64,000 bases of DNA from Candidatus Nomurabacteria bacterium (lineage in GTDB: Bacteria > Patescibacteriota > Minisyncoccia > Phycocordibacterales > UBA5272): assembly GCA_029288775.1 (NCBI GenBank), contig JARIGQ010000004.1, positions 3,303-67,302 on the forward strand, written 5' to 3'. The position numbers were made by a program, and so were the translations under genes. This document shows positions 5,593 to 50,718 of the stretch, one piece after another. The notes beneath the pieces were generated by a model. It saw only the letters and a program-made list of their open reading frames with translations. It did not search any database and was not told the DNA's origin. Position 1 is the stretch's first letter. Each line of letters begins with the position of its first letter.

Positions 5593-5630
5593 ATCAAAAC
5601 CGCGCCCCTCCGGGCGCGGTTTTGATTTCA
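5591..5630 (+). terminator. Rho-independent terminator after nrdB
   Basis: Perfect 17-bp stem AAATCAAAACCGCGCCC / GGGCGCGGTTTTGATTT with a CTCC loop and a T-rich 3' side, starting directly at the stop codon. Confidence 0.75.
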
Positions 5631-5693
5631 CTGCATCTACTGCATTACTATACTACTTGCTATACTGTGTGTATGTTAAAGGTCTCGCGTTCC

Positions 5694-15004: not shown

Positions 15005-18000
15005 CTAGGTAAGCATCTTGATTTCGTCGACTACAAGGGTCTTTTCTCCGTTCCTTGTAGCCACTTTCCCGCGCACAACGATCGGCACATCAAGGACAAT
15101 AGAAGATTTGTAGCGCTTATAGGTTTCGGGGAACACGGCAACTTCCATAGCCCCTCTATAGTCTCGCAGGCGTACAAGAGCCATATGGTCGCCTTTTTTG
15201 GTTTTGGTGATCTTGGAGTTTTCAATGATTGCAGCCAGGGAAACTTCCTTACCATCTGCTATATCGTGGTGTATTTTTTCAATGTCTAATCCTCGTGCAG
15301 CAATTTTTTCTTTCCATGGATCAAGTGGGAAACCGGAGACAAAGAGTCCAAGCAGCTCTTTTTCCCATTGTAATTTTTGTTCTTGAGAAATAGGGGGAGC
15401 AGGTTTCATGACAAAAGATGTTGTATCTTCTGTACCAAACAATGAATCTTGCAGCACGTTGTCTTTCACTACGTGCTTATGGAAAGCGAGGATGTTATCC
15501 ATGTTTGCAAGTATTTGTCCGCGATCACCAAGTTCGTCGAGTGCACCACACATGGTGAGTGCTTCGAGAGATTTTTTGTTGAGGTTTTTATGCGTTACTC
15601 GGCGAATGAATTGTTCAAATGAAGTGAAGCGCCCGTTCTTATTCCGTTCTTCGATGATTGCATCCGAAATATCTACTCCTAAGTTTTTAATGGTGTAGAG
15701 TCCGAAACGAATTTCTTCTTTACCATTACTATCTTTAATAATGGAGAAACCTCCTTCGGATGCGTTTACATCCGGTGGAAGCACATTGATATTCATACGT
15801 TTACATTCCGCCACAATTTCTGCAATCTTTTCTACGTCTCCCGATTCATTTGTCATAATCGCTGTCATGTACGCGACAGGGAAGTTTGCTTTCATGTATG
15901 CCGTCTGGTACGCCACACGACCATAACTTGCAGCATGAGCCTTGTTGAATCCATATGCGGCAAATGGTTCGATTTGTTCCCACAGCAAGTCCGCCTTTTT
16001 TTGCGAAAGTCCATGTTCAATGAATCCTTGCATGAGCTTTTCTTTTTGCGCTGCCATTTCTGCAGGAATCTTTTTACCCATAGCTTTGCGAAGCTTATCC
16101 GCTTCAAGCCACGAGTACCCCGCCAAGTGAATAGCGATGAGCATCACGTCGTCTTGATATACGATGACACCGAATGATTGATCGAGTACTTGCTCAAGAC
16201 GTGGATCCACAAAAGAAATGAGCGAAGGGTTATGTTTTCGCTTGATGTATTCGGGAATCATTTCAAGCGGTCCCGGACGATAGAGCGCCACCATGGCGTT
16301 GATGTCGAAGATGGTTGAAGGTTTTAGTTCCTTTAAAAACCGTGTCATGCCAGAGCCGTTTAATTGGAAGAGTCCCATCGTTTCTCCGCGAGCAAGCATG
16401 TCAAATGTCTTTTGATCATCAAGCGGAATTGCTTCTATATCGAGCTTTACTCCATAACGGTCCTCGGCAATTTTAATGGCATCTCCTAAGATGGTGAGAT
16501 TACGAATACCCAAGAAGTCGAATTTAAGCAGACCGGCATCTTCGATCGTATACATATCATATTGTGTGATGATCTTGCCGCCTTTGGGATCTTTTTGTAT
16601 TGGGGTAAAGTCCCAGAGCGGAGAAGGGGAGATTACCGTGCCTGCTGCGTGTACAGAGATGTGTCGTGCACATCCTTCTACTTTTTGTGCCATGTCGAGA
16701 ATCATTTGTACTTCACGATCAGTGTCATACATTTCCTTAAGTTCCGGAACATCAACAAGCGCACTTGCAATGGTGACAGGGAATCCTTGTTTGGGTGGAG
16801 GAATCATTTTGGAAATTCTATCGCCAACGGTGTAGGGGAATTTCATTGCGCGCGCGACATCCTTCACTGCGCCACGAGCCATCATGGTACCGAAGGTTCC
16901 GATCTGGGCCACGTTATCAATTCCGTATTTGCTTCGTGCATAATCAATTACTTCATCGCGTCTTGTATCGGCATAGTCCATATCGATATCCGGTGCAGAC
17001 GGACGTTCTGGATTGAGAAAGCGTTCAAATGGAAGCTTGTATTCAAAAGGGTTACATTTTGTAATTTGAAGCAAATACGTTACGAGTGAGCCCGCAACCG
17101 ACCCTCGAATATTAGTGAGAATATTATTTTCTCGCGCGAAACGAAGAAGGTCGTATACCACAAGAAAGTATGGAGAATAGCCTTTGTCTGCAATCACTTT
17201 AAGCTCATAATCTAAACGCTCTAGTACATGCGGAGCAGGCTCCATGTCTCGTACTTGAAGTCCTGCATAGGCAAGCTCACGGAGATCTTCATCGTAGCTT
17301 TTTTTGAATTCAATATTGGGAAATACCCATTTGCCTAGAGGTATTTGTACATCACACAATTCGGCAAGCTTAACTGTGTTTTCAAGCGCATCCGGAATAT
17401 CTGCATATTGTTTCGCTGCTGCCTCTGGATCCACAAAAGAAAAGTCTTCTTTTTGAAAAAGGTGTGCGTATCTGTTTTGAGAGTATTCGTCACCGTGGAC
17501 AAAGTACAGTGTTTTGTGAGCTGCTTTATCATTAGGGCTTAAATAGTGTGAATTCCAGGTTGCAATAAGAGGGGTGTTTGTTTCGCGTGCAAGAGCGATT
17601 GTTTTTTCCCGCATAAGTGGTCCATGTTCCATTGCAGTATGCGGATTGATCTCGAGAAAGAAATGTTCACCAAAGTGTTCCTTGTAAAAAGCTAAGCGCG
17701 TCCTCGCTTCTTCTTCATTAATCGCCAGAAGATTGCTCACCTCTCCCCATTGTCCACCCGAAAGGAGAGTGATCCCATCTTTGTAGGTGAGAAGTATGTC
17801 TTGGGTGAGTACTGGTTCCAGTGGATTCTCGACGTTTACAATAGAGGTAATACGCATGAGATTTTTATAGCCCTGCAAACTATGTGCAATGAGAACTGTT
17901 TTAAACTTCCTGTCATTGTAATGAAGGTCAAATTCCACCCCTATGATAGGTTTTAATCCTTCTTTTTCACACGCTTTAGAAAACTCAATAGCGCCATACA

Positions 18001-18157
18001 TATTGCTGTAATCAGTAAGCCCTACAGCAGTATGACCATAGGATTTTGCTTTCTTTACGAGCGCATCTATTTTAGGGAGAGCGGAGAGAAGGGAATAGTG
18101 GCTATGGTTACGAAGATGCACGAACATAGGGTTAGTATACAGCATGATAAAGCTCAC
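15005..18157 (-). CDS. dnaE: DNA polymerase III alpha subunit (DnaE)
   Basis: PHP domain (FVHLRNHSHYSLL), polymerase core motifs, and a C-terminal OB-fold; 1050 aa. The start may be an internal Met (18142 or 18127). Confidence 0.9.
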   Translation of the reverse strand: MSFIMLYTNPMFVHLRNHSHYSLLSALPKIDALVKKAKSYGHTAVGLTDYSNMYGAIEFSKACEKEGLKPIIGVEFDLHYNDRKFKTVLIAHSLQGYKNLMRITSIVNVENPLEPVLTQDILLTYKDGITLLSGGQWGEVSNLLAINEEEARTRLAFYKEHFGEHFFLEINPHTAMEHGPLMREKTIALARETNTPLIATWNSHYLSPNDKAAHKTLYFVHGDEYSQNRYAHLFQKEDFSFVDPEAAAKQYADIPDALENTVKLAELCDVQIPLGKWVFPNIEFKKSYDEDLRELAYAGLQVRDMEPAPHVLERLDYELKVIADKGYSPYFLVVYDLLRFARENNILTNIRGSVAGSLVTYLLQITKCNPFEYKLPFERFLNPERPSAPDIDMDYADTRRDEVIDYARSKYGIDNVAQIGTFGTMMARGAVKDVARAMKFPYTVGDRISKMIPPPKQGFPVTIASALVDVPELKEMYDTDREVQMILDMAQKVEGCARHISVHAAGTVISPSPLWDFTPIQKDPKGGKIITQYDMYTIEDAGLLKFDFLGIRNLTILGDAIKIAEDRYGVKLDIEAIPLDDQKTFDMLARGETMGLFQLNGSGMTRFLKELKPSTIFDINAMVALYRPGPLEMIPEYIKRKHNPSLISFVDPRLEQVLDQSFGVIVYQDDVMLIAIHLAGYSWLEADKLRKAMGKKIPAEMAAQKEKLMQGFIEHGLSQKKADLLWEQIEPFAAYGFNKAHAASYGRVAYQTAYMKANFPVAYMTAIMTNESGDVEKIAEIVAECKRMNINVLPPDVNASEGGFSIIKDSNGKEEIRFGLYTIKNLGVDISDAIIEERNKNGRFTSFEQFIRRVTHKNLNKKSLEALTMCGALDELGDRGQILANMDNILAFHKHVVKDNVLQDSLFGTEDTTSFVMKPAPPISQEQKLQWEKELLGLFVSGFPLDPWKEKIAARGLDIEKIHHDIADGKEVSLAAIIENSKITKTKKGDHMALVRLRDYRGAMEVAVFPETYKRYKSSIVLDVPIVVRGKVATRNGEKTLVVDEIKMLT

Positions 18158-18197
18158 TAATCGGCATAGAGGAGGGATCTCTTATATACTCTGTGTG

Positions 18198-18860
18198 ATG
18201 TCAAAACTACCACCAAAACGCTCCATCCAGTACCCTTTCAAGGGTTGTATTGGGATAGATGAAGCGGGTCGCGGTCCTTTAGCCGGTCCGGTTACAGTGT
18301 GTGCGTGCTTTGTGGAAGATCTAAAAGAAGTAAAAAGAGTACTTTTTTCTAATTCTATTAGAGACTCTAAAAAACTTAATAATTCATTAAGAATCAATAT
18401 ATTTAAAACTATTAGACAAAAACGATTAATTAAATCTCGCATAGAATATGCAATTGCATCTCGTTCCGCTGCATTTATAGACCAGCATGGCATTGTGAAA
18501 GCAGTGGACGCGTGTATTGTTTCCTGTCTACGCACATTAAGTCGCAAGGGTCTTCCTGTGGAAACCCTCAAGATACGCTTGGATGGAGGTTTAAAAATTA
18601 AGCACTATAAGGCTAACCAGAGTACTCATATCAAAGGGGATGAACAGTTTGTAGAAATAGCTTTAGCCTCTATTGTGGCTAAAGTACATAGAGATAGCTA
18701 TATGGAGCGACTAGCAAAGCAAATAAAGGGATACAAGTGGGAAAATAACGTCGGGTATGGAACCAAAGAGCATAGAGAGGCTATAGGTAACATGGGTGCC
18801 ACAAAATACCACAGAAGTACGTATTTAAAAGGGTTTAAACTATTCGATAAAGCAGAATAA
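18198..18860 (+). CDS. rnhB: Ribonuclease HII
   Basis: GIDEAGRGPLAGPVTV, DSKKL and ASIVAKVHRD motifs. The start is trimmed from 18144 to ATG 18198, so it lies 40 bp from the divergent dnaE start. Confidence 0.85.
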   Translation: MSKLPPKRSIQYPFKGCIGIDEAGRGPLAGPVTVCACFVEDLKEVKRVLFSNSIRDSKKLNNSLRINIFKTIRQKRLIKSRIEYAIASRSAAFIDQHGIVKAVDACIVSCLRTLSRKGLPVETLKIRLDGGLKIKHYKANQSTHIKGDEQFVEIALASIVAKVHRDSYMERLAKQIKGYKWENNVGYGTKEHREAIGNMGATKYHRSTYLKGFKLFDKAE

Positions 18861-42591: not shown

Positions 42592-42623
42592 TAGGAGGAG
42601 GGGAGAGGGGATAGCGGAAACGG

Positions 42624-42708
42624 TAATTTCAGTACATTACAGTACAATACAGTAATCAGTGGATGTGATAGAAGATAGTAACAAGTACATGCAGTAAATA
42701 CAGTGAAT
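42624..42708. repeat. Intergenic CAGTA-array element A (CAGTA arm only)
   Basis: CAGTA at 42630, 42640 and 42650 (exact 10-bp phase), CAGTG at 42657, CAGTA at 42692 and CAGTG at 42701. Confidence 0.7.
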
Positions 42709-42729
42709 GCTAGGCGCAGGAAATATAAC

Positions 42730-45051
42730 ATGAAAGAAAATATGAAAAATAGAATAAGTAAGAACGTAGCAGCGATAAAAAGGCAAAGCCTTTTTATCGC
42801 TGTATTACTGATCGCCCTTTTCTGTAGTACTGTATGGACTAAAATCACTATATCAACTGTATTTACTGTACCCACTGCGTCTGCTGCCATTGTTCCCGTT
42901 CAGCCCTCCAATCAGGGTCTTGTTGGATATTGGAAGTTTGATGAAGGGGAAACGGCAACAGCAAAGGATTATTCCGGCAATCGTCTCAATGGAACTTTAA
43001 ATAATTTTTCCAGTACACCCTCTACCACAAGCGGATGGCAGACAAAGGGGAAAATAAATGGAAGTATTGCGTTGGATGGTGTGGATGATTATGTGCATAT
43101 TGGTACCCCGTCCGCTTTAAATATTACAGGAGATCTAACTCTTTCTGCTTGGGTAAATCCGCGAGCTTACACAAGTAATCCGTGTGGAGGAACTGCTCAA
43201 TTTCCGGTCTTTGGAAGAATCACTAATAGTAGATCTCCCTATGTTTTATCTATTGCCGCTAATTCTATCCTTTTTGGTAATAACCTTACTTCGGGAGGAG
43301 ATGTAAATAATTGGCAATATTTGATCCCCTCAACTTCGAATCCTGTTAATAAATGGGTACATGTAGCAGCGGTACGCTCTGGTACTACAATGATGGTTTA
43401 TAAAAATGGAGTTTTATTAGCTACTTCTACTCTTTTAGGTCCTAGTGTAAACACCTCATGGTCCGGGATACGTTTTGGGTTTGATGGATGTGGGAATTAT
43501 TACGCATCTGGATCCTTGGATGAATTATATATTTACAATCGAGCCTTATCTTCTTCTGAAATTGCTTATCTTGCAAAAAATGCCCCAACGTCAATTGGTG
43601 CTACGGCCACTTCCACTGCTTCATCGCTTACAAATGGCTTACAGCTCTACTACTCTTTTGATGGGAAAAATACTACGCCTACTTCTATTCCAGATATGTC
43701 TGGCAATGGGAATACAGGGACCGGATCATCAAGTACTGCCTTTGCTACCGCAGGGTCACTTAGTACGGGGAAAATAGGGCAAGGGGTTTTACTTACTTCT
43801 ACAACCACTGGTGCCTCGTATGTTCAGTATATTGATACAGGTTCCTCGACTTTTAACATTACGAATAAACTTACCATTTCTGCCTGGATTAAACCTAACG
43901 CAGCAGGGATCAAGACAAACACCATTCTTTCAAATGCCCGCGACTGCGGTGGTTGTGGCACATATAAAGGATTTAATTTCGGTAGCACTGCCGCCTATAA
44001 TGGTCTTAGTTTTTCCTATTTCGATTCTAATTCTTCGGGTCCGTTTGGTCTTACTGTGAGTAATTACTTTCCTCCAATTAATACGTGGACACATTTGGTA
44101 GTAACATTTAATAACAAAGTCACTAAAATTTATGCTAATGGAGTTTTAATTTCAAGTGGTACTATCGGAGGTACAGGTACAATAGGTACTCCTTTTAGTT
44201 TTGACAGTTTTGTTGGACGATATGGTTTTAGTCCAGGGTTCGGTTCTTCAAATGCTGTGTATGATGAGGTGCGTCTTTATAACCGAGATTTAAGTGTGAG
44301 TGAAATACAGCAGCTCTATAAGCTTGGGCAAGTGAAGCTTGCAAGCTCGGACCCCATATCTGCTCAATCAGGCACCGCTTCAGGACTCGTTGCTCATTTT
44401 ACTTTTGATGGCAAGAATATGACTTCAACATCTACTCTCGATAGTTCTGGTGGAGGAAATACCGGAACCTTAAACGGATCACCTCGTACAGATATTGGAA
44501 AAATTGGACAGGGATTAAGGTTTAATGGGAATGGTCAGTATGTTTCTCTTCCGAACTCCTCTCTTGAGCTTTCTGTACCGCTTTCATTTTCTGTATGGAT
44601 TAAACCAGTTCTACCTTCCTCTGCCGCAGGTTTAATTACTACCGATAAATCAGGAAGTAGTGTTCACTCAGGAGCTTGGATTGATTTACAAAGCAACGGA
44701 GCGCTAGGTCTAAACTACGGAAATAATACTATATGCGGCCCGACGGGTAGAAGATCATTTGCTACAGGTGGAGGGGTTATACAATCAAATAAATGGTACC
44801 ACGTTGTGGGGATTATACGTGGTCCAGTGGATATGAGTATTTATGTAAATGGAGTAAATATAAGCGGGTCATATAGCGGATCTGGTACCAATATTGTTTA
44901 TAGATCCGATTCAGGTCCTAGAATTGGAAGGGAAGATAATTGTTTAGCGAATTATTGGGACTATAGTGGATTAATGGATGATGTCCGTATCTATAATAAG
45001 GCACTTTCTGCTGCAGAAGTTCAACAGCTCTATAAATTAGGAGGAAAGTAG
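42730..45051 (+). CDS. Secreted protein with three LamG/concanavalin A-like lectin domains (Laminin_G_3 type)
   Basis: N-terminal TM/signal segment (LFIAVLLIALFCSTVW). Three repeats of the LVGYWKFDEG...DYSGNRLNGTL...GKINGSIALDG.DDYV ... LYIYNRALS pattern. The ORF track starts at GTG 42703; ATG 42730 is preferred. Confidence 0.75.
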   Translation: MKENMKNRISKNVAAIKRQSLFIAVLLIALFCSTVWTKITISTVFTVPTASAAIVPVQPSNQGLVGYWKFDEGETATAKDYSGNRLNGTLNNFSSTPSTTSGWQTKGKINGSIALDGVDDYVHIGTPSALNITGDLTLSAWVNPRAYTSNPCGGTAQFPVFGRITNSRSPYVLSIAANSILFGNNLTSGGDVNNWQYLIPSTSNPVNKWVHVAAVRSGTTMMVYKNGVLLATSTLLGPSVNTSWSGIRFGFDGCGNYYASGSLDELYIYNRALSSSEIAYLAKNAPTSIGATATSTASSLTNGLQLYYSFDGKNTTPTSIPDMSGNGNTGTGSSSTAFATAGSLSTGKIGQGVLLTSTTTGASYVQYIDTGSSTFNITNKLTISAWIKPNAAGIKTNTILSNARDCGGCGTYKGFNFGSTAAYNGLSFSYFDSNSSGPFGLTVSNYFPPINTWTHLVVTFNNKVTKIYANGVLISSGTIGGTGTIGTPFSFDSFVGRYGFSPGFGSSNAVYDEVRLYNRDLSVSEIQQLYKLGQVKLASSDPISAQSGTASGLVAHFTFDGKNMTSTSTLDSSGGGNTGTLNGSPRTDIGKIGQGLRFNGNGQYVSLPNSSLELSVPLSFSVWIKPVLPSSAAGLITTDKSGSSVHSGAWIDLQSNGALGLNYGNNTICGPTGRRSFATGGGVIQSNKWYHVVGIIRGPVDMSIYVNGVNISGSYSGSGTNIVYRSDSGPRIGREDNCLANYWDYSGLMDDVRIYNKALSAAEVQQLYKLGGK

Positions 45052-45079
45052 GAGCAGTGGAGATGGCAGGTTTCGGTAA

Positions 45080-45202
45080 AATACAGTGACTCAGTAAGTT
45101 GCAGCAGGTAAGTAATTTCAGTAAATACAGTAATGCGAGAGTGATTACTTGTTTACTGACACTACTGCGTACACTGGGCTACTGTGCCGCTGAAATTACT
45201 TG
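45080..45202. repeat. Intergenic CAGTA/TACTG element B (both arms)
   Basis: CAGTG/CAGTA at 45085, 45092, 45119 and 45128; then TACTT/TACTG/CACTG at 45146, 45154, 45163, 45172, 45180 and 45197 (8-9-bp phase). The inverted pair AAGTAATTTCAG / CTGAAATTACTT. Confidence 0.75.
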
Positions 45203-45251
45203 AATTTTCGCTCTTGCTAAAAAGTGTAGAATAAGGTAAAATAAGTGCATT

Positions 45252-45437
45252 ATGGTAGTACGAATGAGACACACCCGAGCGCATACGGCTAACCGTCGCT
45301 CACACCACGCGCTTAAGGCAGCGAACCTTGTTGCTTGCAAGAACTGTAACGCCATGAAGACTCCGCACCGCGTTTGTGACGCCTGCGGCTATTATCGTGG
45401 CCAGAAAGTGCTTACAATAAAGGCAAAGGTGCAGTAA
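45252..45437 (+). CDS. rpmF: 50S ribosomal protein L32
   Basis: RRSHHALKA...C.NC...K.PHRVC.CGYYRG, the L32 signature with a Zn-ribbon. Confidence 0.8.
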
Positions 45438-45553
45438 ATTAAGTAGTTTCAGTATATACAGTGCCCAGTAAGTTGCATTAGGTAAGTAATTTCAGTAGCA
45501 CGATTACTGAGCCACTGAAACTACTGCATGCACTGGACTACTGAAATGTACTA
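45430..45553. repeat. Intergenic CAGTA/TACTG element C (both arms); overlaps the rpmF stop codon
   Basis: GCAGTAAAT includes the rpmF TAA. CAGTA/CAGTG at 45450, 45459, 45466 and 45493; then TACTG/CACTG alternating at 45504, 45513, 45522, 45531 and 45539, and TACTA at 45549 (9-bp phase). Confidence 0.75.
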
Positions 45554-45663
45554 CCCTAATGGGCTATTGAAATGCACTGCCTCCACTTTCCACAATTTTC
45601 GTTTTTCTATCTGCACATGTGCGCTACACTATACTGATAAGTAAGTCATAGATCTTTTCCTTC

Positions 45664-46563
45664 ATGAGTACTCGCCACATAGCCCGAACACTCGCTCTCC
45701 AAACACTTTTTGAACTCGACATGAAAGGTGAGCTTGGCATTACTCAGGATGCCGTAGAGCCTATTCTTATACGCAATAGGGACGAGTTTGGCGAAGGCAT
45801 AAAGGATGCCTCATTTGCAAAAGATATTTTGACCAACGCTCTTTCGCGCCGTATCACTATTGATGACATTATTACACGTGCGGCTCCAGATTGGCCACTC
45901 GAAAAAATTAGTACCGTAGATAGGAACATTTTACGCATTGGACTTACCGAGCTTTTGTTTGGTGATCGCGGACAAGTTCCTCCGAAGGTAGCTATCGACG
46001 AAGCAATAGAACTTGCAAAAACCTATGGTGGAGAAACTTCGGGCCGCTTTGTAAACGGTGTACTCGGCGCTATATATAAGGAAATGGGCGAACCTGAAAA
46101 GGAACAGACCACTAAGACCAAATCCGAGCATATGAAATCCGCTCCGAAAGAAATGCTTGCGGGTGCGGTCGTCCTTTCGAAAACTGATGGCAAACTCCAT
46201 GTCGGACTTGTCCATGATGTGTTTGGTTATTGGACGCTTCCAAAAGGACGACTTGAAGAGGGAGAGGATTTGGAGAAGGGGGCAAAGCGTAAAATTGAAT
46301 CTGAAATCGGTATTCCAGTTACTATTATGGATAAGCTTGGTGAGAATGAATATATCGCTAATAAGCCGGAAACTGGAAAGGTGGTCAAGCATGTAAGCTA
46401 TTTCTTGGCTACCGCAAAATATATTCCGCTTCAGCTCGAAAAGAAGACTGGCCTTGATGATGCTAAGTGGTTTGATGCTGATGAAGTAAGTGAGCTTCGT
46501 ATTTATGATGACATTAAGCCGCTTATCGAAAAGGCACTGTCTCTTGCTGAAAAGATTGTATAA
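45664..46563 (+). CDS. nusB: NusB (transcription antitermination) domain fused to a C-terminal NUDIX hydrolase domain
   Basis: N-terminus: ARTLALQTLFELD, LRIGLTELLF, AIDEAIELAKTYGGETSGRFVNGVLG (NusB). C-terminus: Nudix box PKGRLEEGEDLEKGAKRKIESEIGI (GX5EX7REUXEEXGU), after GAVVLSKTDGKLHVGLV. Confidence 0.8.
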   Translation: MSTRHIARTLALQTLFELDMKGELGITQDAVEPILIRNRDEFGEGIKDASFAKDILTNALSRRITIDDIITRAAPDWPLEKISTVDRNILRIGLTELLFGDRGQVPPKVAIDEAIELAKTYGGETSGRFVNGVLGAIYKEMGEPEKEQTTKTKSEHMKSAPKEMLAGAVVLSKTDGKLHVGLVHDVFGYWTLPKGRLEEGEDLEKGAKRKIESEIGIPVTIMDKLGENEYIANKPETGKVVKHVSYFLATAKYIPLQLEKKTGLDDAKWFDADEVSELRIYDDIKPLIEKALSLAEKIV

Positions 46564-46575
46564 TTCGGTGAATCT

Positions 46576-47268
46576 ATGACTCTTCAAGAATTTGAGCGCT
46601 CCATTTCAGTAACCTTCAAGAATAAGGCTCTTTTGGAGCAAGCGTTTATTCATCGTAGTTTTATTAATGAAAATCCAAGAAGCGGTTTGGAACATAATGA
46701 ACGCTTGGAATTTTTAGGGGATGCTGTCCTTGAGCTTGTGGTGACAGAATTTTTGTATGAAACCTATCCTCATCACAACGAAGGAGACCTGACCGCCTAC
46801 CGCTCAGCCCTTGTGAATGCGGTGACATTGGGCAAAGTGGCAGATGATCTTGGGTTTAACGATTTGATGAAGCTCTCCAAAGGAGAGGCGAAGGATGTGT
46901 CACGTGCGCGTTCGTCTATCTTGGCGGATGCGTACGAAGCATTCGTTGGGGCGCTTTATTTGGATCAAGGGTATAAAGAGGCAAAAGTATTTATTTCTAA
47001 AACGGTACTCATTAAAACAGAGGATATCGTCAAGCAAGGATTGTACAAGGATGCTAAAAGTTTCGTCCAAGAAAAAGCTCAAGAGGTGAGAAGTGTTACT
47101 CCTGCTTATCGTGTGCTTGGAGAGGAAGGGCCGGATCATGATAAACGATTCCGCGTAGGTATTTATTTTGGTGAAGAATTGATAAGTGAGGGTGTAGGTA
47201 AGAGCAAGCAAGAAGCAGAAACCGAAGCAGCTCGCGCCGCACTTATTAAAATGCAGTGGATGGAGTAA
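46576..47268 (+). CDS. rnc: Ribonuclease III
   Basis: ERLEFLGDAVLEL signature, ADAYEAFVGALYLD, and a C-terminal dsRBD (KSFVQEKAQEV...GVGKSKQEAETEAARAAL). Confidence 0.9.
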   Translation: MTLQEFERSISVTFKNKALLEQAFIHRSFINENPRSGLEHNERLEFLGDAVLELVVTEFLYETYPHHNEGDLTAYRSALVNAVTLGKVADDLGFNDLMKLSKGEAKDVSRARSSILADAYEAFVGALYLDQGYKEAKVFISKTVLIKTEDIVKQGLYKDAKSFVQEKAQEVRSVTPAYRVLGEEGPDHDKRFRVGIYFGEELISEGVGKSKQEAETEAARAALIKMQWME

Positions 47269-47380
47269 ATACAGTATATACAGTAATTTCAGTGGCCCAG
47301 TAGGGTAGTACATTTCAGTAAATACAGTATTTAGTGGCACAATAGATACACTAAACCTAGTGGTTTCAGTTCGTTGCAGT
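47266..47380. repeat. Intergenic CAGTA-array element D (CAGTA arm only); begins at the rnc stop codon
   Basis: GAGTAAATACAGTATATACAGTAATTTCAGTGGCCCAGTAGG...TTTCAGTAAATACAGTA; CAGTA/CAGTG at 47272, 47281, 47290, 47298, 47316 and 47325 (9-bp phase). Confidence 0.75.
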
Positions 47381-47406
47381 GGTAGTTTTTGTAGTACACT
47401 TTGTGA

Positions 47407-47766
47407 ATGCTGGAGTATAAAGATCTGATTGTTTGGCAAAAGGCTTTTGATCTGTCATTGCATATTTACAAAGCAACTGAACAATTTCCGGAGGTAGAAA
47501 AATTTGGTTTGCAATCACAAATGCGAAGAGCTGCTGTTTCTATCCCTTCTAACATTGCCGAAGGTAGTCGACGTGGAACTCATAAAGATTATATTTCTTT
47601 TCTTAGAGTTGCCGACGGGTCTGCGGCAGAATTGGAGACACAATTGTTGTTGGCTCATGCATTAAAGTATATGTCTGAACCTCAATTTACCACTTCGCAG
47701 GAACTTCTTATGGAAGTACGCAAAATGCTGCCTTCAGTGATAGGTAGGTTGCAATCTTCTTCTTAA
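47407..47766 (+). CDS. Four-helix-bundle protein (23S rRNA intervening-sequence protein family, TIGR02436-like)
   Basis: Family-typical MLEYKDLIVWQKAFDLSLHIYKATEQFP..EKFGLQSQMRRAAVSIPSNIAEGSRRGTHKDYISFLRVADGSAAELETQLLLA. Confidence 0.8.
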   Translation: MLEYKDLIVWQKAFDLSLHIYKATEQFPEVEKFGLQSQMRRAAVSIPSNIAEGSRRGTHKDYISFLRVADGSAAELETQLLLAHALKYMSEPQFTTSQELLMEVRKMLPSVIGRLQSSS

Positions 47767-47768
47767 AT

Positions 47769-47820
47769 GTACTATAGTACTGAAACTACTGTGTTTACTG
47801 AAATTACTTTATTTTTACTT
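47769..47820. repeat. Intergenic TACTG-array element E (TACTG arm only)
   Basis: TACTG at 47779, 47788 and 47797; TACTT at 47806 and 47816 (9-bp phase). Its reverse complement matches element D over about 25 nt (AGTAATTTCAGT....CAGTAG). Confidence 0.75.
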
Positions 47821-47822
47821 GT

Positions 47823-48554
47823 ATGCGTTTAGATCAGGCGCTTGTAACACGTGCTTTATGCGAATCACGCACAGAAGCGCAGGAGCTTATCGAAAAGTCA
47901 TTGGTGCTTGTAAATGGGGTGATTGTTACTAAGCAAACAAAGGCAATCAAGGATACGGATGAATTGAGCGTACAAGGAAAGCGAAGTTTTGTATCCCGGG
48001 GAGGGGAGAAACTTAAAGGTATTCTGCAGGATATTTATGGAGATGAGGAAGTCATACAAAGCCAGGTGCAAGGAAAACAGGCACTTGATATTGGTTCATC
48101 TACCGGCGGGTTTACGGATTGCTTGCTTTCGTATGGAGCTGCGCACGTTGATGCGGTTGATGTGGGCACAGACCAATTTCATGCTCGATTACGAGGAGAT
48201 ACACGAATTACGCTTTTTGAATCTACAGACATACGTGCATTCCAAGCTTCCCGTGAGTATGATATCGTGGTTGCTGATCTTTCTTTTATTTCCCTTGAGC
48301 CTTTGTTTGAAACTATTCTTTCTTTTGGAAAAAATGGAACGGCATTTTTTCTTCTCATTAAGCCGCAGTTTGAAGTGGGGAAAGGAAATACGAAAAAAGG
48401 CATTGTAAAAGATATGGAGCTTGTGCTTTCACTTCTTAAAAAATATGAAGTCATCGCCAAATTACATGGAATGACTGATTTACAAATACTTCCGTGTCAT
48501 ATTCAGGGAGGTGAGGGTAATCAGGAATTTTTCTTATACGGAGTGTGTGCATAA
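47823..48554 (+). CDS. tlyA: TlyA-family rRNA 2'-O-methyltransferase (S4 domain plus FtsJ-like MTase)
   Basis: MRLDQALVTRALCESRTEAQELI..VLVNG (S4), FVSRGGEKL, LDIGSSTGGFTDCLLSYGAAHVDAVDVGTDQ. Confidence 0.85.
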   Translation: MRLDQALVTRALCESRTEAQELIEKSLVLVNGVIVTKQTKAIKDTDELSVQGKRSFVSRGGEKLKGILQDIYGDEEVIQSQVQGKQALDIGSSTGGFTDCLLSYGAAHVDAVDVGTDQFHARLRGDTRITLFESTDIRAFQASREYDIVVADLSFISLEPLFETILSFGKNGTAFFLLIKPQFEVGKGNTKKGIVKDMELVLSLLKKYEVIAKLHGMTDLQILPCHIQGGEGNQEFFLYGVCA

Positions 48555-48556
48555 GA

Positions 48557-48596
48557 TGCAAAGCAAAACCGCCCTTCCGGGCGGTTTTGCTTTGCA
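48557..48596. terminator. Bidirectional intrinsic terminator shared by tlyA (+) and the convergent RRM gene (-)
   Basis: TGCAAAGCAAAACCGCCC-TTCC-GGGCGGTTTTGCTTTGCA, a perfect 18-bp stem with A/T-runs on both sides. Confidence 0.8.
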
Positions 48597-48615
48597 TTAA
48601 TCTGCTGCAGACAGA

Positions 48616-48897
48616 TTAGAATGCGCGACGTGGACGATCCTCTCGCGGAGCGAGTGGACGCGCGATGTTCACCGTAAGACGGCGACCCTGGAAATCCTGG
48701 TCATGGAACATAGCGATAGCCTTTTGAGCCTCTTCTTCAGACGCCATCTCAACGAAGCCGAAGCCCTTTGAGCGGTTAGTCATCTTGTCGATAATGATTT
48801 GAGCAGAAGTTACAGTTCCAGCTGCGCTGAAATGCGCCTTAAGATCCTCATTTGTAGAAGAGTAAGGTATTCCACCTACGTAAAGTTTTGAATTCAT
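48616..48897 (-). CDS. RRM-type RNA-binding protein
   Basis: RNP-2 LYVGGI and RNP-1 KGFGFVEM motifs; Arg-rich C-terminal tail. Confidence 0.8.
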   Translation of the reverse strand: MNSKLYVGGIPYSSTNEDLKAHFSAAGTVTSAQIIIDKMTNRSKGFGFVEMASEEEAQKAIAMFHDQDFQGRRLTVNIARPLAPREDRPRRAF

Positions 48898-49000
48898 TGA
48901 TGTAGAAACTAATTGTTAACAATAAGCCCTAGCACACATTCCTAAAAACGTGGAGTTGCTTATGATCTCATACTACCACATCTAGGGTAAATAGTAAACA

Positions 49001-49138
49001 CAGTGGGGTAGTAATTTTAGTAGCCCAGTGTATGCAGTAAATGCAGCACATTTCAGTAATGCGATGATGAATGTACTGAAATTACTACCTAAGGGTATCT
49101 ACTGTGTCACTGGGTGTACTGCCCCACTGGGTCTACTT
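49001..49138. repeat. Intergenic CAGTA/TACTG element F (both arms)
   Basis: CAGTG/CAGTA at 49001, 49026, 49035 and 49054; TACTG/CACTG at 49073, 49083, 49100, 49108, 49117 and 49126; TACTT at 49134. Confidence 0.75.
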
Positions 49139-49142
49139 GCAT

Positions 49143-50618
49143 TTATAGTTTGCCGAGATCAAGCGTCTGGGTAATACCAAGTTCTCGTACGAATTCTCCT
49201 ACGTGGGATACGACAATAATCGGTCCTTCGAAGTTTTTTATTGCTTCGGCGATTACGGGGATGTGGCGGAAGTTGATATGGTTTGTCGGTTCGTCTAAGA
49301 TGAGGAGTCCTGGTTCTTGGAGACGAAGGTAGGCAAACATAAGGAGTCCTTTTTGGCCTTCTGAAAGAAGTCCAATTTTGGAAGCGAGTTGTTCTGCACC
49401 TAAAAGCATGGATGCGGCGACGCGGCGAATGAGCTGATCATCGAGCTTTTTCAATACCTTGGCAAGTTCTTGGTAGGCGCTTTTGTCGAAATCAAGCGTA
49501 GAGAAGTCCTGACGGTAATAGCCAATGCGTATTCCTTCTTTTACGCTGACGCCTTTTTCGGTACCTTTGGCAATCTTTTCAAGAAGCGTGGTTTTTCCAA
49601 TACCGTTGGGTCCTACGATATGGAGCTTGTCACCTTTGCGAAGTTCAAGCTCAACATTTCGCTTTACGGGAGTGCCATCATGCAATACTTCAACCGATTC
49701 AAAGCGTACGATAACCGAACCAATATCTTCCTGACATTTAATGTCGAATGGTCTGATGGTACGGTCTTCCTTTCGTACATCCACCTTGTCTTCTTCCATT
49801 TCATCGATTTCATCACGGAGCTTAGCGGCAAGTTTTCGCATCTTACCTCCTTTGTGCGCGAAGAAGTTCACTTTTTCCTTGTTGCTTAGAATTTCCTTTT
49901 CGAGCTGGGCATTGGCACGCTGTTCGCGTTCCACTTGGCGCTTGATATCTTCTACTACTTTGTAGTAATTACCTACATACTGTTCTACTTTACGATTTTG
50001 AGTATTGATATAGAGGACACCATGAGTAAAGGCATTGAGGAAGGGAGCATCGTGAGAAATAACAAGTACGGTGCCCGGGTAATTTTTGAGGAAATCTGTA
50101 AGCAGGGCAATGCCAGCCTTATCCAAATTGTTGGTTGGTTCATCCAACAGCAAAATATCTGGATTTTGGATGAGCGCTTGCGCGATGAGAAGGCGTCCTT
50201 TTTGTCCACCTGAGAGTTCTTTGATGGTACGATCAAGCGGCACGTTCAATTGCACTTCGGTAAAGACTTCCTTGGCGCGCTTATCAATATCGTAGATCTT
50301 TTCGTCAAAAGCCTTTTCCAAGAATTGTCGCACAGTAAGATGCCACTGCGAGTGGGGGATGAATTGTTTAGCAATTGCTACATGCAAATCCTGTCCAATA
50401 ATAATGCGGCCTTCATCGGCTTTGCGTTCACCCATAATAAGCGAAAAGAGCGTGGACTTACCGGCGCCGTTTTGCCCCATAAGCGTGAGCTTGGTTCCTT
50501 TGCGTACAACAAAATTCGCCTCATCTAAGATGCGTTTGTTTTCGCCAAAGTTAAAGATGACGTCTTCGAAGCGAAGCACTGCTTCACCTCCTTGTGGAAT
50601 TGCTTTTTCGACTGCCAT
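49143..50618 (-). CDS. ABC-F family ATPase (two ABC domains, no TM; EttA/Uup-like)
   Basis: Two copies each of Walker A (GQNGAGKST; GPNGIGKTT), the ABC signature (LSGGQKGRL; LSEGQKGLL) and Walker B (LLLDEPTN; LILDEPTN). The start is trimmed to ATG 50618 (MAVEKAI...). Confidence 0.85.
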   Translation of the reverse strand: MAVEKAIPQGGEAVLRFEDVIFNFGENKRILDEANFVVRKGTKLTLMGQNGAGKSTLFSLIMGERKADEGRIIIGQDLHVAIAKQFIPHSQWHLTVRQFLEKAFDEKIYDIDKRAKEVFTEVQLNVPLDRTIKELSGGQKGRLLIAQALIQNPDILLLDEPTNNLDKAGIALLTDFLKNYPGTVLVISHDAPFLNAFTHGVLYINTQNRKVEQYVGNYYKVVEDIKRQVEREQRANAQLEKEILSNKEKVNFFAHKGGKMRKLAAKLRDEIDEMEEDKVDVRKEDRTIRPFDIKCQEDIGSVIVRFESVEVLHDGTPVKRNVELELRKGDKLHIVGPNGIGKTTLLEKIAKGTEKGVSVKEGIRIGYYRQDFSTLDFDKSAYQELAKVLKKLDDQLIRRVAASMLLGAEQLASKIGLLSEGQKGLLMFAYLRLQEPGLLILDEPTNHINFRHIPVIAEAIKNFEGPIIVVSHVGEFVRELGITQTLDLGKL

Positions 50619-50630
50619 ATAAAGAGAAAT

Positions 50631-50642
50631 GCCCACGTGGGC
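50631..50642. promoter_or_regulatory. Perfect 12-bp palindrome GCCCACGTGGGC in the divergent ABC-F / nrnA intergenic region
   Basis: Seen directly; 13 bp upstream of the ABC-F ATG. Confidence 0.3.
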
Positions 50643-50718
50643 AGCTCGTCTATAGTAACACATTTTCCTTCTTTTGTCAGTTCTGTTGAACGGCTGCTCC
50701 TCACTGTATACTTATTTT

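Follow-up and report, generated by a model that had tools for sequence, protein, structure and literature searches.

The 64-kb stretch of DNA analysed here (the window) carries, from 42352 to 49140, arrays of a short phased repeat lying between and within genes: at the 3' end of a giant ORF of 7854 amino acids, at both ends of a LamG gene, between rpmF and nusB, between rnc and tlyA, and between genes coding for an ABC-F and an RRM protein. The repeated unit has the consensus [C/T/A]AGT[A/G]N3-4 (about 9 bp, with a CAGTR core), and the second arm of an element is made of its reverse complement. Chains of CAGTR start at 42630/42640/42650 and 47272/47281/47290/47298, and chains of YACTG at 45505/45513/45522/45531/45539 and 47778/47787/47796, all within 1 nt of the positions given in an earlier sequence-only reading of the window; the words quoted in that reading, and the overlaps of the motif with the stop codons of rpmF and rnc, are likewise present.

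The 9-bp-phased CAGTR arrays and their inverted YACTG counterparts occur far above chance expectation. A scan with the pattern AGTAN4CAGTAN4CAGTAN4CAGT, tolerating up to two mismatches, finds 16 matches in the window compared with none in 100 dinucleotide shuffles, and there are 10 AGTR chains (at least four units, 8-10 nt apart) compared with none in 30 shuffles. The modal AGT-to-AGT spacing is 9 nt (42/96 intervals, with 8 nt in 13 and 10 nt in 5), and motif density is 5.8-12.5 per 100 nt in six intergenic regions as opposed to about 0-4.5 in nearly all others. Unit number and spacing differ from copy to copy. The polarity of the arms is fixed, the CAGTR arm always being the 5' one and the orientation relative to the element centre being the same in 8/8 elements. 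A covariance-model scan of the window against Rfam yielded a tRNA as the only feature reaching the gathering threshold, with the elements lacking any match at E <= 1. A CRISPR identity was also rejected.

Palindromic copies between and within genes

The arrays form one family of palindromic insertion elements with at least seven copies. The sequence-only reading had counted six elements, correctly placing them in a single family but missing a two-armed copy (Z, 42352..42550, plus strand; CAGTA arm ~42352-42435, YACTG arm ~42438-42550) that lies in frame within the S/T-rich C-terminal tail of the giant ORF, where it is translated as ...SSPVDTVNT...TETTASTSPTASTGSTGSTASTETTGPTGSAETT... The right arm of copy Z is a perfectly phased run of 12 units with a strict 9-nt period, and the copy accounts for 10 of the 16 pattern matches and folds with z = -3.2. 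Homologues of the giant ORF have array-free tails of similar length; as copy Z replaces such a tail and adds no length, some copies may come from conversion.

No strand is assigned to the four copies that follow. Copy A (42624..42886), previously taken for a CAGTA arm only, also has two arms: the left CAGTA arm (42624-42710) is followed by a loop (42711-42805) with a perfect hairpin of 15 bp (42770-42802) and, at 42730, the start codon of LamG, and the missing YACTG arm (42806-42886) lies within the LamG ORF, where it codes for part of the N-terminus (TKITISTVFTVPTASAA). These two arms pair together in the minimum free energy (MFE) fold (-77.9 kcal/mol, z = -4.5). Copies B, C and F are ORF-less, 130-165 bp long and have complementary arms. 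Copy B (45075..45204; -44.6 kcal/mol, z = -3.2) is an imperfect palindrome located between the LamG stop and the rpmF promoter; copy C (45428..45592; z = -2.4 on the plus strand, -3.3 on the minus strand), another one, has its 5' end in the last rpmF codons and supplies the rpmF stop codon (TGCAGTAAAT); and copy F (48988..49140), a palindrome lying between the ABC-F stop codon and the conserved sequence upstream of the RRM gene, is the best paired of the ORF-less copies (-58.3 kcal/mol, z = -5.6 on the plus strand; -56.4 kcal/mol, z = -6.7 on the minus strand). With z-scores of -2.4 to -6.7, these folds agree with the earlier description of B, C and F as two-armed imperfect palindromes, and with that of a MITE-like family of related imperfect palindromes predicted to fold as long hairpins. 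The family is not purely intergenic, as had been supposed, since copies extend into coding sequence or sit inside it. The claim that nothing comparable exists elsewhere in the window is nearly right, the exception being half-array G (5629..5668, plus strand), whose five YACTG-type units follow a terminator hairpin (5594-5628) and lie directly upstream of an ATG at 5673; the predicted fold of this region gives structure to the terminator only.

The copies are linked by homology blocks in direct or inverted orientation. B matches C over 30/32 nt, F over 20/21 nt and the reverse complement of E (the right arm of the element discussed below) over 22/23 nt; C matches D (the left arm of that element) over 32/35 nt, a 35-nt stretch of the two being 91% complementary; and A matches F over 16/16 nt. 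Copies Z and C have the exact 17-mer CACTGAAACTACTGCAT in common, Z and F have AGTAGCCCAGT, and the copies draw on a common vocabulary of words. Judging from these multi-unit blocks and this vocabulary, the copies are homologous and of common descent.

Long hairpins between genes might also be transcription terminators or attenuators evolved by the host, an explanation that we find barely credible: none of the hairpins is followed by a T-run, a terminator scan found no match at the elements, the genuine terminators of the window (48556-48597 and 5594-5628) are GC-rich stems with a T-run, and relatives manage without the elements.

The IVP gene and the arrays that enclose it

Immediately downstream of rnc, and between it and tlyA, lies the only copy with an ORF. 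Its 5' arm, D (47255..47400, plus strand), consists of some 15 CAGTR units, among them a chain of 9 phased ones, and begins at the rnc stop codon, which is itself part of the motif (GGAGTAAATACAGTA). The ORF that follows (47407..47766, plus strand) codes for a 119-aa four-helix-bundle '23S rRNA intervening-sequence protein' (IVP/S23p), as shown by its matches to PF05635 (E = 2.9e-40), TIGR02436 (128 bits, cut-off 24) and PDB 2GSC (E = 2.8e-21), the last being an entry with 5 chains. This gene had been overlooked in the sequence-only reading. Arm E (47767..47820, plus strand) is a 3' YACTG array of 5-6 units that stops 2 nt 5' of the tlyA ATG, much as half-array G stops 4 nt 5' of its own. No rRNA genes were found in the window.

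Arm D alone is predicted to be unfolded (z = +0.5). In a fold of 47245-47830, D pairs with E around the IVP ORF (z = -3.3), with 47251-47300 paired to 47775-47825 in both the MFE and the centroid structures, and the duplex between the 70-nt flanks upstream and downstream of the IVP gene reaches -39.1 kcal/mol (z = -5.5). D and E, formerly read as separate elements with a CAGTA arm only and a TACTG arm only, thus belong together as the arms of a single element around the ORF at 47407-47766. The PF05635 ORF is restricted to this copy, and Z, A, B, C and F carry no IVP ORF. A diversity-generating retroelement was rejected, as there is no reverse transcriptase among the scanned ORFs and no long direct repeat of the TR/VR type; the protein is not an Avd either, scoring 41 bits against the Avd equivalog (cut-off 80).

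Presence and absence in related genomes

We compared syntenic loci of L001 and L123 (RNase III 90% identical), L124 (83%) and a JGI contig (85%). Copies B, C, F and D-IVP-E were not found in sister genomes that share the gene order of the window, where spacers measure 6-98 bp as against 138-245 bp in the window, and no arrays were found in about 30 kb of sister loci. In L001, the site of copy A is an array-free spacer of 36 bp and that of copy B a spacer of just 45 bp. The rpmF-nusB spacer is 226 bp long in the window; its counterparts in L001, L123 and the JGI relative measure 37, 39 and 35 bp, respectively, and the C-terminus of rpmF diverges from that of L001 where copy C starts. Around copy F, the flanks are ~95% identical to those of L123, and ~155 bp (~48982-49138) are found in the window only. 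L001, L123, L124 and the JGI 347-kb contig lack the IVP gene between rnc and tlyA, whereas L126/L127 and a JGI 2311-bp contig have it. No target-site duplication could be recognised at the B, C, F and D/E junctions in alignments with L001 and L123, in which the flanks have diverged and some native sequence has been replaced. Since sister genomes lack B, C, F and D-IVP-E, the copies differ among these genomes by insertion or deletion, which bears out the presence/absence polymorphism that the sequence-only reading had proposed as a check.

IVP genes of related CPR contigs, and those of 13 IMG/VR loci, likewise have inverted tandem arrays of short period, mostly 7 bp, on both sides. The closest homologues of the window's IVP are found in L131 (69% identity, local alignment) and L133, between rnhB and dnaE, and are flanked by CAGTRNN x5 and NNYACTG x5, i.e. 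by the same CAGTR core. The L126/L127 IVP, at the rnc-tlyA site, has AGTT/AACT arrays, a second L131 paralogue has TTAAGT/ACTTAA arrays, and among the 13 additional IMG/VR loci, most have lineage-specific arrays of 7-11 bp upstream with their complement downstream. The period is 7 in L131, L133, L126 and most IMG/VR loci versus a modal 9 in the window; similar IVPs have repeat cores in common, and within each genome the ORF-less copies have the repeat period of the IVP cassette that resides there. Tandem periodicity of IVP flanks is higher than that of controls (Mann-Whitney p = 1.4e-7), and flank-to-flank duplexes with z < -3 are found at 8/18 IVP loci compared with 0/28 control genes, the other 10/18 IVP loci not reaching that value. 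In general, inverted arrays of short period lie on either side of IVP genes. Because inverted tandem arrays of this kind also flank the gene elsewhere, the architecture is not confined to this genome, contrary to the initial proposal; the 9-bp vocabulary alone appears to be genome-specific.

The dnaE gene of L131 itself contains an ORF-less palindromic array of 87 bp, inserted in frame (29 aa) and missing from the DnaE of the window and of L133; it folds weakly (z = -1.1). Such copies within coding sequence, dnaE included, are hard to reconcile with a host regulatory array, in which CAGTA would be a double-stranded-DNA site for a regulator, nucleoid or partition protein (comparable to MetJ, omega or ParG-type proteins) controlling the gene cluster. 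A conserved 5-nt core with variable spacers, fixed polarity (8/8 elements) and clustering in one region are what such an array would display, but close relatives have the same operon without the sites, no adjacent DNA-binding regulator gene was found, and the same core recurs with a period of 7 bp in one genome and 9 bp in another, so that the sites would lie on different helical faces. We therefore regard this explanation as quite unlikely.

The 7-bp period, which is not a multiple of codon length, also bears on the idea that the elements are decayed coding sequence, derived from fragments of the giant surface protein's xxT tripeptide-repeat tail that were duplicated nearby and became pseudogenised. 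Copy Z is in frame, 9 nt make three codons, Z and C have their 17-mer in common, and the elements lie just 3' of the giant gene. However, intergenic copies have spacings of 8-10 nt, one reading frame of their CAGTA arm contains stop codons, the copies are palindromic as coding repeats are not, the S/T-rich tails of relatives are array-free, and array-bearing IVP cassettes without such a protein tail are partly seen (L131, L133). This origin seems highly unlikely.

Origin of the family and known systems

It seems probable that the family represents an IVS-type cassette residing outside rRNA, together with ORF-less derivatives of a MITE- or RPE-like kind. The full-length member, made of D, the IVP gene and E, would hold the IVP ORF in the loop of a long stem built by the flanking arrays; B, C, F and A would be hairpin derivatives without the ORF, standing to it as a MITE does to its parent; and copy Z and the dnaE copy of L131 would be translated in frame, like Rickettsia palindromic elements (RPEs). 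Co-transcription with neighbouring genes would produce long imperfect double-stranded RNA stems, likely substrates for RNase III, which may cut them as it does IVS stems. Such cutting would remove the element from the transcript or insulate it there, which would make insertions between and within essential genes tolerable. Side effects would be newly gained stop codons, peptide segments added at the N- or C-terminus of proteins, and arrays adjoining start codons. As for how copies arise, no transposase, recombinase or reverse transcriptase genes were found in the 64-kb window, and as six of the seven or more copies fall within 7 kb of the 64 kb examined, local copying or gene conversion fits at least as well as transposition.

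Variable unit number and spacing, this clustering and the perfectly phased 12-unit run of copy Z could also be produced by simple-sequence expansion in situ, through 9-bp slippage at gene boundaries with inverted partners generated by local template switching; no mobile element would be involved and the link with IVP would be hitch-hiking only. The heptamer number of the Coxiella IVS does differ among strains (PMC4990558). Slippage at separate sites would not, however, yield the ordered multi-unit blocks (21-35 nt, 91-96% identity) that distant copies have in common, and it has to account for complete two-armed palindromes where the sites of relatives are array-free and for the recurrence of the architecture with IVP genes of other, unrelated loci and lineages. 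In our view, expansion in situ is unlikely.

ORF-bearing 23S rRNA IVSs coding for S23p/IVP (PF05635) occur in Leptospira, Coxiella, Xanthomonas and others. They resemble the D-IVP-E element in their cargo protein family, in an ORF placed in the loop of a long stem formed by complementary flanks, in short tandem repeats 5' of the ORF and in sporadic occurrence among relatives. They differ in their location (helix 25 or 45, rather than between rnc and tlyA), in the length and phasing of the arrays (up to ~15 units, 9-bp phased, in the window) and in that ORF-less derivatives and in-frame coding copies are absent from the IVS literature compared. In the Coxiella 23S IVS, tandem heptamers (GACAGAT) lie upstream of an S23p ORF that is probably untranslated, RNase III cleaves at the first repeat and repeat number is strain-variable (PMC4990558). 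IVP ORFs have also been found in rRNA insertions of CPR bacteria (PMC11270868).

Heptamer direct repeats of the TAACTGA type are found in Beggiatoaceae, Cyanobacteria and Bacteroidetes, their mechanism and binding protein not being known (MacGregor 2015, PMC4679880); that paper makes no link with IVP, the terms S23, four-helix and intervening sequence not being mentioned. Like the window arrays, these are short tandem units with an ACTG/CAGT core, mostly intergenic, sometimes within ORFs or over ORF ends, missing in close relatives, and pointing toward a start codon a few nt before which they end, as arms E and G do. They are direct repeats with one inverted case and a period of 7, whereas the window arrays are inverted pairs with a period of 9 bp (7 in L131 and L133). 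Cyanobacterial STRR heptamers such as CCCCAGT are another such repeat.

A bolder proposal, which we regard as doubtful though worth stating, is that an IVP homopentamer binds its own repeats sequence-specifically, IVP and arrays together being self-propagating and a source of short tandem repeats and IVSs. The four-helix-bundle protein would recognise some five CAGUR units, separated by flexible spacers of 2-4 nt, in single-stranded RNA or DNA, much as the TRAP ring recognises spaced GAG triplets. If true, IVP and its inverted arrays would be a self-propagating cassette with ORF-less offspring, which would explain the 'heptamer' repeats (TAACTGA, STRR, Coxiella IVS) of CPR, Cyanobacteria, Bacteroidetes and Beggiatoaceae; rRNA IVSs too would derive from the IVP cassette, and a very large orphan protein family would gain a function.

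Several families of small palindromic elements invite comparison with the ORF-less copies. RPEs (~100-150 bp) lie between genes and in frame in essential genes, whose products gain a peptide segment, as with the 29-aa DnaE insertion of L131 and copy Z; they are not known to be related in sequence to the window family, they are not made of tandem sub-repeats, and no cargo-bearing form is known. Correia elements of Neisseria are co-transcribed, their transcripts being cut by RNase III, and such MITEs are ORF-less, 100-160 bp long, multi-copy, hairpin-forming and strain-polymorphic, with inverted-repeat arms; Correia elements have defined 26-bp terminal inverted repeats and a TA target duplication, in contrast to the tandem-array arms of the window family. 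B, C and F, being short, non-coding, bounded by terminal inverted repeats and present in multiple related copies, have the attributes of MITEs, although the sole ORF-bearing copy encodes a four-helix-bundle protein, no transposase-bearing parent was found in the window and no related transposase is known.

The elements, labelled REP/MITE-like in the sequence-only reading, could also be REP/BIMEs mobilised by a RAYT (an IS200/IS605-like Y1 transposase), or classical MITEs with a transposase beyond the window. They share with these a palindromic, intergenic, multi-copy nature and a species-specific vocabulary. A REP, however, is one palindrome of 20-40 bp headed by GTAG or CGTC, whereas the window has 9-bp tandem arrays in ORF-less elements of 130-165 bp, with no RAYT or transposase gene in 64 kb, no target-site duplication found and IVP as the product of the only ORF-bearing relative; we judge this origin very unlikely. 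A purely architectural analogy to the window family, without homology, is found in another domain of life in the eukaryotic foldback (FB) transposons, kilobase-scale elements of variable arm length whose long inverted arms are likewise arrays of short tandem sub-repeats, with or without a central coding segment.

Repeat arrays and their gene neighbourhood

The arrays lie in an ordinary chromosomal stretch of a Paceibacterota/Parcubacteria-like (CPR) bacterium; those homologues of its RNase III that have a name are assigned to Paceibacterota, Nomurabacteria and similar groups. The genes around the arrays are a 7854-aa ORF (19027-42591, plus strand), the gene for a secreted LamG-domain protein (42730-45051), rpmF (45252-45437), a NusB-NUDIX fusion (45664-46563, plus strand), rnc, which codes for RNase III (46576-47268), the gene for a 119-aa '23S rRNA intervening-sequence protein' (IVP, PF05635; 47407-47766), tlyA (47823-48554) and, on the minus strand, genes for an RRM protein (48616-48897) and an ABC-F ATPase (49143-50663). 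No transposase, recombinase or reverse transcriptase was found in a scan that took in the other large ORFs of the 64-kb window. The 7854-aa ORF alone takes up more than one third of the window; its final 862 aa have no Pfam match, and its homologues in relatives are split or shorter, with LVIVD repeats (faint matches).

The array coordinates of the sequence-only reading are correct to within 1 nt. The pattern AGTAN4CAGTAN4CAGTAN4CAGT, with up to 2 mismatches, has 16 matches in the window and none in 100 shuffles, and runs of 4 or more AGTR units set 8-10 nt apart number 10 against none in 30 shuffles. Parsed unit by unit, the arrays follow the consensus [C/T/A]AGT[A/G] plus 3-4 variable bases, with a modal period of 9 nt (42 of 96 intervals), and the copies draw on a small common vocabulary of words (CAGTAAATA, NAGTAATTT, CAGTATATA, CAGTAGCC, TAGTACATTT, CAG-TAGTTT and others). 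The element family is real, non-random and structurally coherent. When intergenic regions 25 bp or longer were compared for motif density, the outliers were the six regions originally described and one short region at 5593-5673. The claim that nothing comparable occurs in other intergenic regions therefore stands except for this one, which holds a half-array (G; 5629-5668) of five YACTG units, with a terminator on one side and the next ATG on the other.

A family-specific 20-mer, GTAATTTCAGTAAAYACAGT, has one match in the JGI metagenomes, within a coding signal peptide, and one in IMG/VR, in an operator-like region of alternating ACTG...CAGT palindromes. Both matches are due to chance, so the vocabulary of the window was not found outside its source genome in these two collections. 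The IMG/VR match (L141, 620-690), where alternating ACTG-N5-CAGT palindromes follow one another between genes (TTACTGTATTTCAGTGATGCACTGTGTTTACTGAAATTACTGTAGTTCAGTGA), looks like a phage operator cluster and differs in architecture from the window arrays. The four-unit pattern is too permissive for genome contigs, where no title among the at least 120 matches listed names a CPR lineage. Judged from the match listing, contigs with several matches look like tandem arrays, and four loci among those listed (L027, L036, L053 and L068) carry exact 9-bp-phased CAGTA in many tandem copies in unrelated genomes, namely Endozoicomonas, Solibacillus cecembensis (25 matches in 8 kb), Marinomonas and uncultured Bacilli; these may code for tripeptide repeats or be arrays of another sort.

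Anatomy and descent of the copies

Elements B, C and F fold, as their palindromic look had suggested, into long imperfect hairpins (z -2.4 to -6.7, more negative values being more structured). Element A had been taken for a lone CAGTA arm; its partner arm was found at 42806-42886 in the LamG reading frame, where it codes for TKITISTVFTVPTASAA, and the pairing of both arms encloses the start codon of LamG (z = -4.5). Nor are D and E separate single-arm elements: D does not fold by itself (z = +0.5) and pairs with E across the IVP gene, so that a stem closes around the IVP ORF, which occupies its loop (flank duplex z = -5.5). An eighth piece, Z (42352-42550), is two-armed and in frame with the giant ORF, in whose S/T-rich tail it lies; the right arm of Z consists of 12 units, spaced by exactly 9 nt, that are translated as xxT tripeptides.

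In every two-armed copy the CAGTR arm lies 5' of the YACTG arm. The E. coli-type LexA box is TACTG-N10-CAGTA. Such boxes, considered because of the half-site resemblance, appear to be excluded by the opposite arrangement of the arrays, in which all CAGTA units precede all TACTG units. Within the loop of A there is a perfect 15-bp inverted repeat with a 3-nt loop (42770-42802; CAGCGATAAAAAGGC aaa GCCTTTTTATCGCTG), which has the look of a terminator stem but lies 3' of the start codon, in the predicted signal-anchor coding region of LamG. The N-terminus of this protein is unrelated to that of its orthologue in the syntenic sister contig L001, so the LamG 5' end may have been rebuilt out of element sequence.

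The copies are homologous, sharing ordered multi-unit blocks: 30 of 32 nt are alike between B and C, 22 of 23 between B and E, 32 of 35 between C and D, 20 of 21 between B and F and all 16 between A and F, and Z has an exact 17-mer in common with C. The copies are related by descent, beyond the motif alone.

The sister contigs compared have the same gene order, with an RNase III that is 90% (L001 and L123), 83% (L124) or 85% (a JGI contig) identical, and they hold no arrays in ~30 kb. The LamG-rpmF spacer measures 200 bp in the window and 45 bp in a relative, the rpmF-nusB spacer 226 bp against 35-39 bp, and the RRM-ABC-F spacer 245 bp against 98 bp; rnc and tlyA, 554 bp apart in the window, are separated by 2-57 bp or overlap in relatives, and no IVP gene lies between them in the sister contigs compared. 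The cleanest comparison is that of F, with flanks ~95% identical and ~155 bp found only in the window. The copies thus differ between sister genomes by insertion or deletion, as the presence/absence comparison proposed at the outset was meant to reveal. The stop codons of rpmF and rnc do lie inside the motif: the elements overlap the last codons and supply the stops, and beyond that point the C-termini of both proteins diverge from those of relatives. Pure slippage, by which the arrays would be simple expansions of a short unit, cannot explain the multi-unit blocks common to the copies, nor the presence of complete palindromes where relatives have an empty site.

Nothing convincing as a target-site duplication was recognised at the element junctions. 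In all homologues of the giant protein a conserved CLEDVCINKDQLT..ILNSTGQ motif is followed by a C-terminal tail of low-complexity S/T/P sequence, 73-85 aa long, and this similarity in length rules out Z as an insertion. Judging from these tails, Z is a replacement or conversion of existing sequence, kept in frame with no added length.

The IVP gene and its inverted flanking arrays

The tie between the arrays and an IVP cassette is the key result, and is more informative than the sequence-only reading, whose MITE-like or structured-RNA family was half right and missed this tie. The closest homologues of the window IVP, 69% (L131, over the local alignment) and 62% (L133) identical, come from two relatives in which the gene is at another locus, between rnhB and dnaE, flanked by five CAGTRNN units upstream and five NNYACTG units downstream. 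These arrays have the core seen in the window at a period of 7 bp. At the loci L126/L127 the IVP gene has the rnc-tlyA position known from the window and is flanked by AGTT/AACT heptamers, and a second, distant IVP paralogue in L131 is flanked by TTAAGT/ACTTAA. Minimum-free-energy folds of L131 and L126 again place the IVP ORF in the loop of a flank-to-flank stem.

The cassette is found at two spots in this lineage, rnc-tlyA and rnhB-dnaE (the latter at 2299-5508 in L131, 1328-1678 in L133 and 15005-18860 in the window), and each spot is filled in some relatives but not in others; rnhB and dnaE of the window, which overlap in divergent orientation, hold no cassette. Both spots adjoin RNase genes, possibly by coincidence.

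An ORF-less copy lies within dnaE of L131. It is an 87-bp palindromic array of five CAGTAAC-type units, a loop and five CACTGNN units, translated in frame as 29 extra residues that are absent from the DnaE proteins of the window (surrounding 200 aa 71% identical) and of L133. Copies inside coding sequence are thus tolerated. In both genomes the ORF-less copies keep to the period of the IVP cassette found there (L131, 7 bp; window, 9 bp). An array of double-stranded DNA operators is hard to reconcile with one core at either a 7-bp or a 9-bp period, with copies inside dnaE and with the absence of arrays from the same operon in relatives. Decayed coding repeats, as a source of the arrays, are contradicted by the palindromic structure and by the relatives with a 7-bp period. 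The family is best read as an IVS-type (23S rRNA intervening sequence) cassette outside rRNA, together with MITE/RPE-like derivatives that lack the ORF.

We extended the comparison to a convenience sample of 22 IMG/VR loci with IVP homologues, 13 distinct ones of which were tested statistically. Most have, upstream of the gene, a tandem unit of 7-11 bp that is specific to their lineage, and the reverse complement of this unit on the downstream side (for example AGGGTGT/ACACCCT, AGTAGGG/CCCTACT, TAGTCTG/CAGACTA, AACGTTC and YAGTGNN). Flank-to-flank duplexes reach z < -3 at 8 of 18 IVP loci, the other 10 falling short of this threshold, against none of 28 control genes. Tandem periodicity is higher in IVP flanks than in controls (Mann-Whitney p = 1.4e-7), and 7 is the best period for one or both flanks at 15 of the 18 loci. 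IVP genes are therefore generally associated with inverted arrays. The repeat core is common to IVPs that are 62-72% identical and differs below ~56%. At one locus (L145, 1355-1985), 8-bp GGAACTAA arrays followed by their complement occur upstream and again downstream, giving a separate array-built hairpin in each flank without a single stem across the ORF. The window IVP itself matches the pentameric PDB entries 2GSC and 2RLD.

Origin, processing and known counterparts

Several known types of element were considered. The REP-like label attached to the family at first did not hold, as REP/RAYT fails a defining feature, and so does CRISPR; for a diversity-generating retroelement (DGR) there is no RT among the ORFs scanned and no TR/VR pair, and the Avd model scores below its cut-off. 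The elements have no Rfam match, either at the gathering threshold or at E <= 1. Terminator or promoter function was rejected, there being no enrichment and no T-runs.

By analogy with IVSs, arrays co-transcribed with their neighbours would form long imperfect double-stranded RNA, and RNase III could cut it, separating the cistrons and rendering the insertions harmless. The position of the cassette immediately 3' of rnc in several lineages raises the idea of a feedback on rnc mRNA, which is speculation. As to the origin of the copies, they cluster within 7 kb, Z replaces existing sequence, and neither a target-site duplication nor a transposase was found; all this is as compatible with local gene conversion or template switching as with transposition.

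Few uncharacterised small proteins are as abundant in CPR, Bacteroidota and Cyanobacteria as the IVS proteins (PF05635/TIGR02436), and to our knowledge the origin or mobility of rRNA IVSs carrying IVPs has gone without explanation since 1990. The 23S rRNA IVSs are excised by RNase III, are sporadic in distribution and in some cases contain an S23p/IVP ORF, whose product, a toroidal homopentamer of four-helix bundles, has no known function; that IVSs originate from mobile elements has been proposed and never shown (PMC4990558). In the Coxiella IVS, the S23p ORF is closely preceded by three to four tandem GACAGAT heptamers, the first of which is the site of RNase III cleavage, and strains differ in the number of repeats (PMC4990558). 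Insertions in CPR rRNA also contain IVP ORFs (PMC11270868). TAACTGA heptamer direct repeats, described from Beggiatoaceae, Cyanobacteria and Bacteroidetes, mostly point at start codons and end just before them, some lying in ORFs; they are absent from close relatives, with no mechanism or binding protein known, and IVP genes are not mentioned in that paper (PMC4679880). Our incomplete coverage of the literature yielded no paper tying tandem short repeats to IVP genes in general, which is absence of evidence only.

The window unites three things: an IVS-like stem that encloses an IVP gene and lies outside rRNA, the building of stems from tandem short repeats, and ORF-less palindromic offspring between essential genes and, in one relative, within one. 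Through the IVS-protein cassette it is tied to the unexplained heptamer-repeat phenomenon. If the link is true genome-wide, it provides a testable model in which IVPs bind repeat arrays (of units such as CAGUAAAUA) and RNase III processes the stems. The elements are also an annotation hazard, as they alter where genes start and end in the streamlined genomes of CPR bacteria.

Two further features of this gene cluster were noted. The NUDIX hydrolase domain of 45664-46563 lies C-terminal to NusB, a fusion kept in all relatives examined (L001, L123, L124 and L126). Between the convergent tlyA and RRM genes there is a perfect 19-bp GC-rich hairpin (48556-48597), conserved in L001 and L123; its sub-threshold Rfam matches to ohsC and RNAI are structural look-alikes only, and it is probably a bidirectional terminator.
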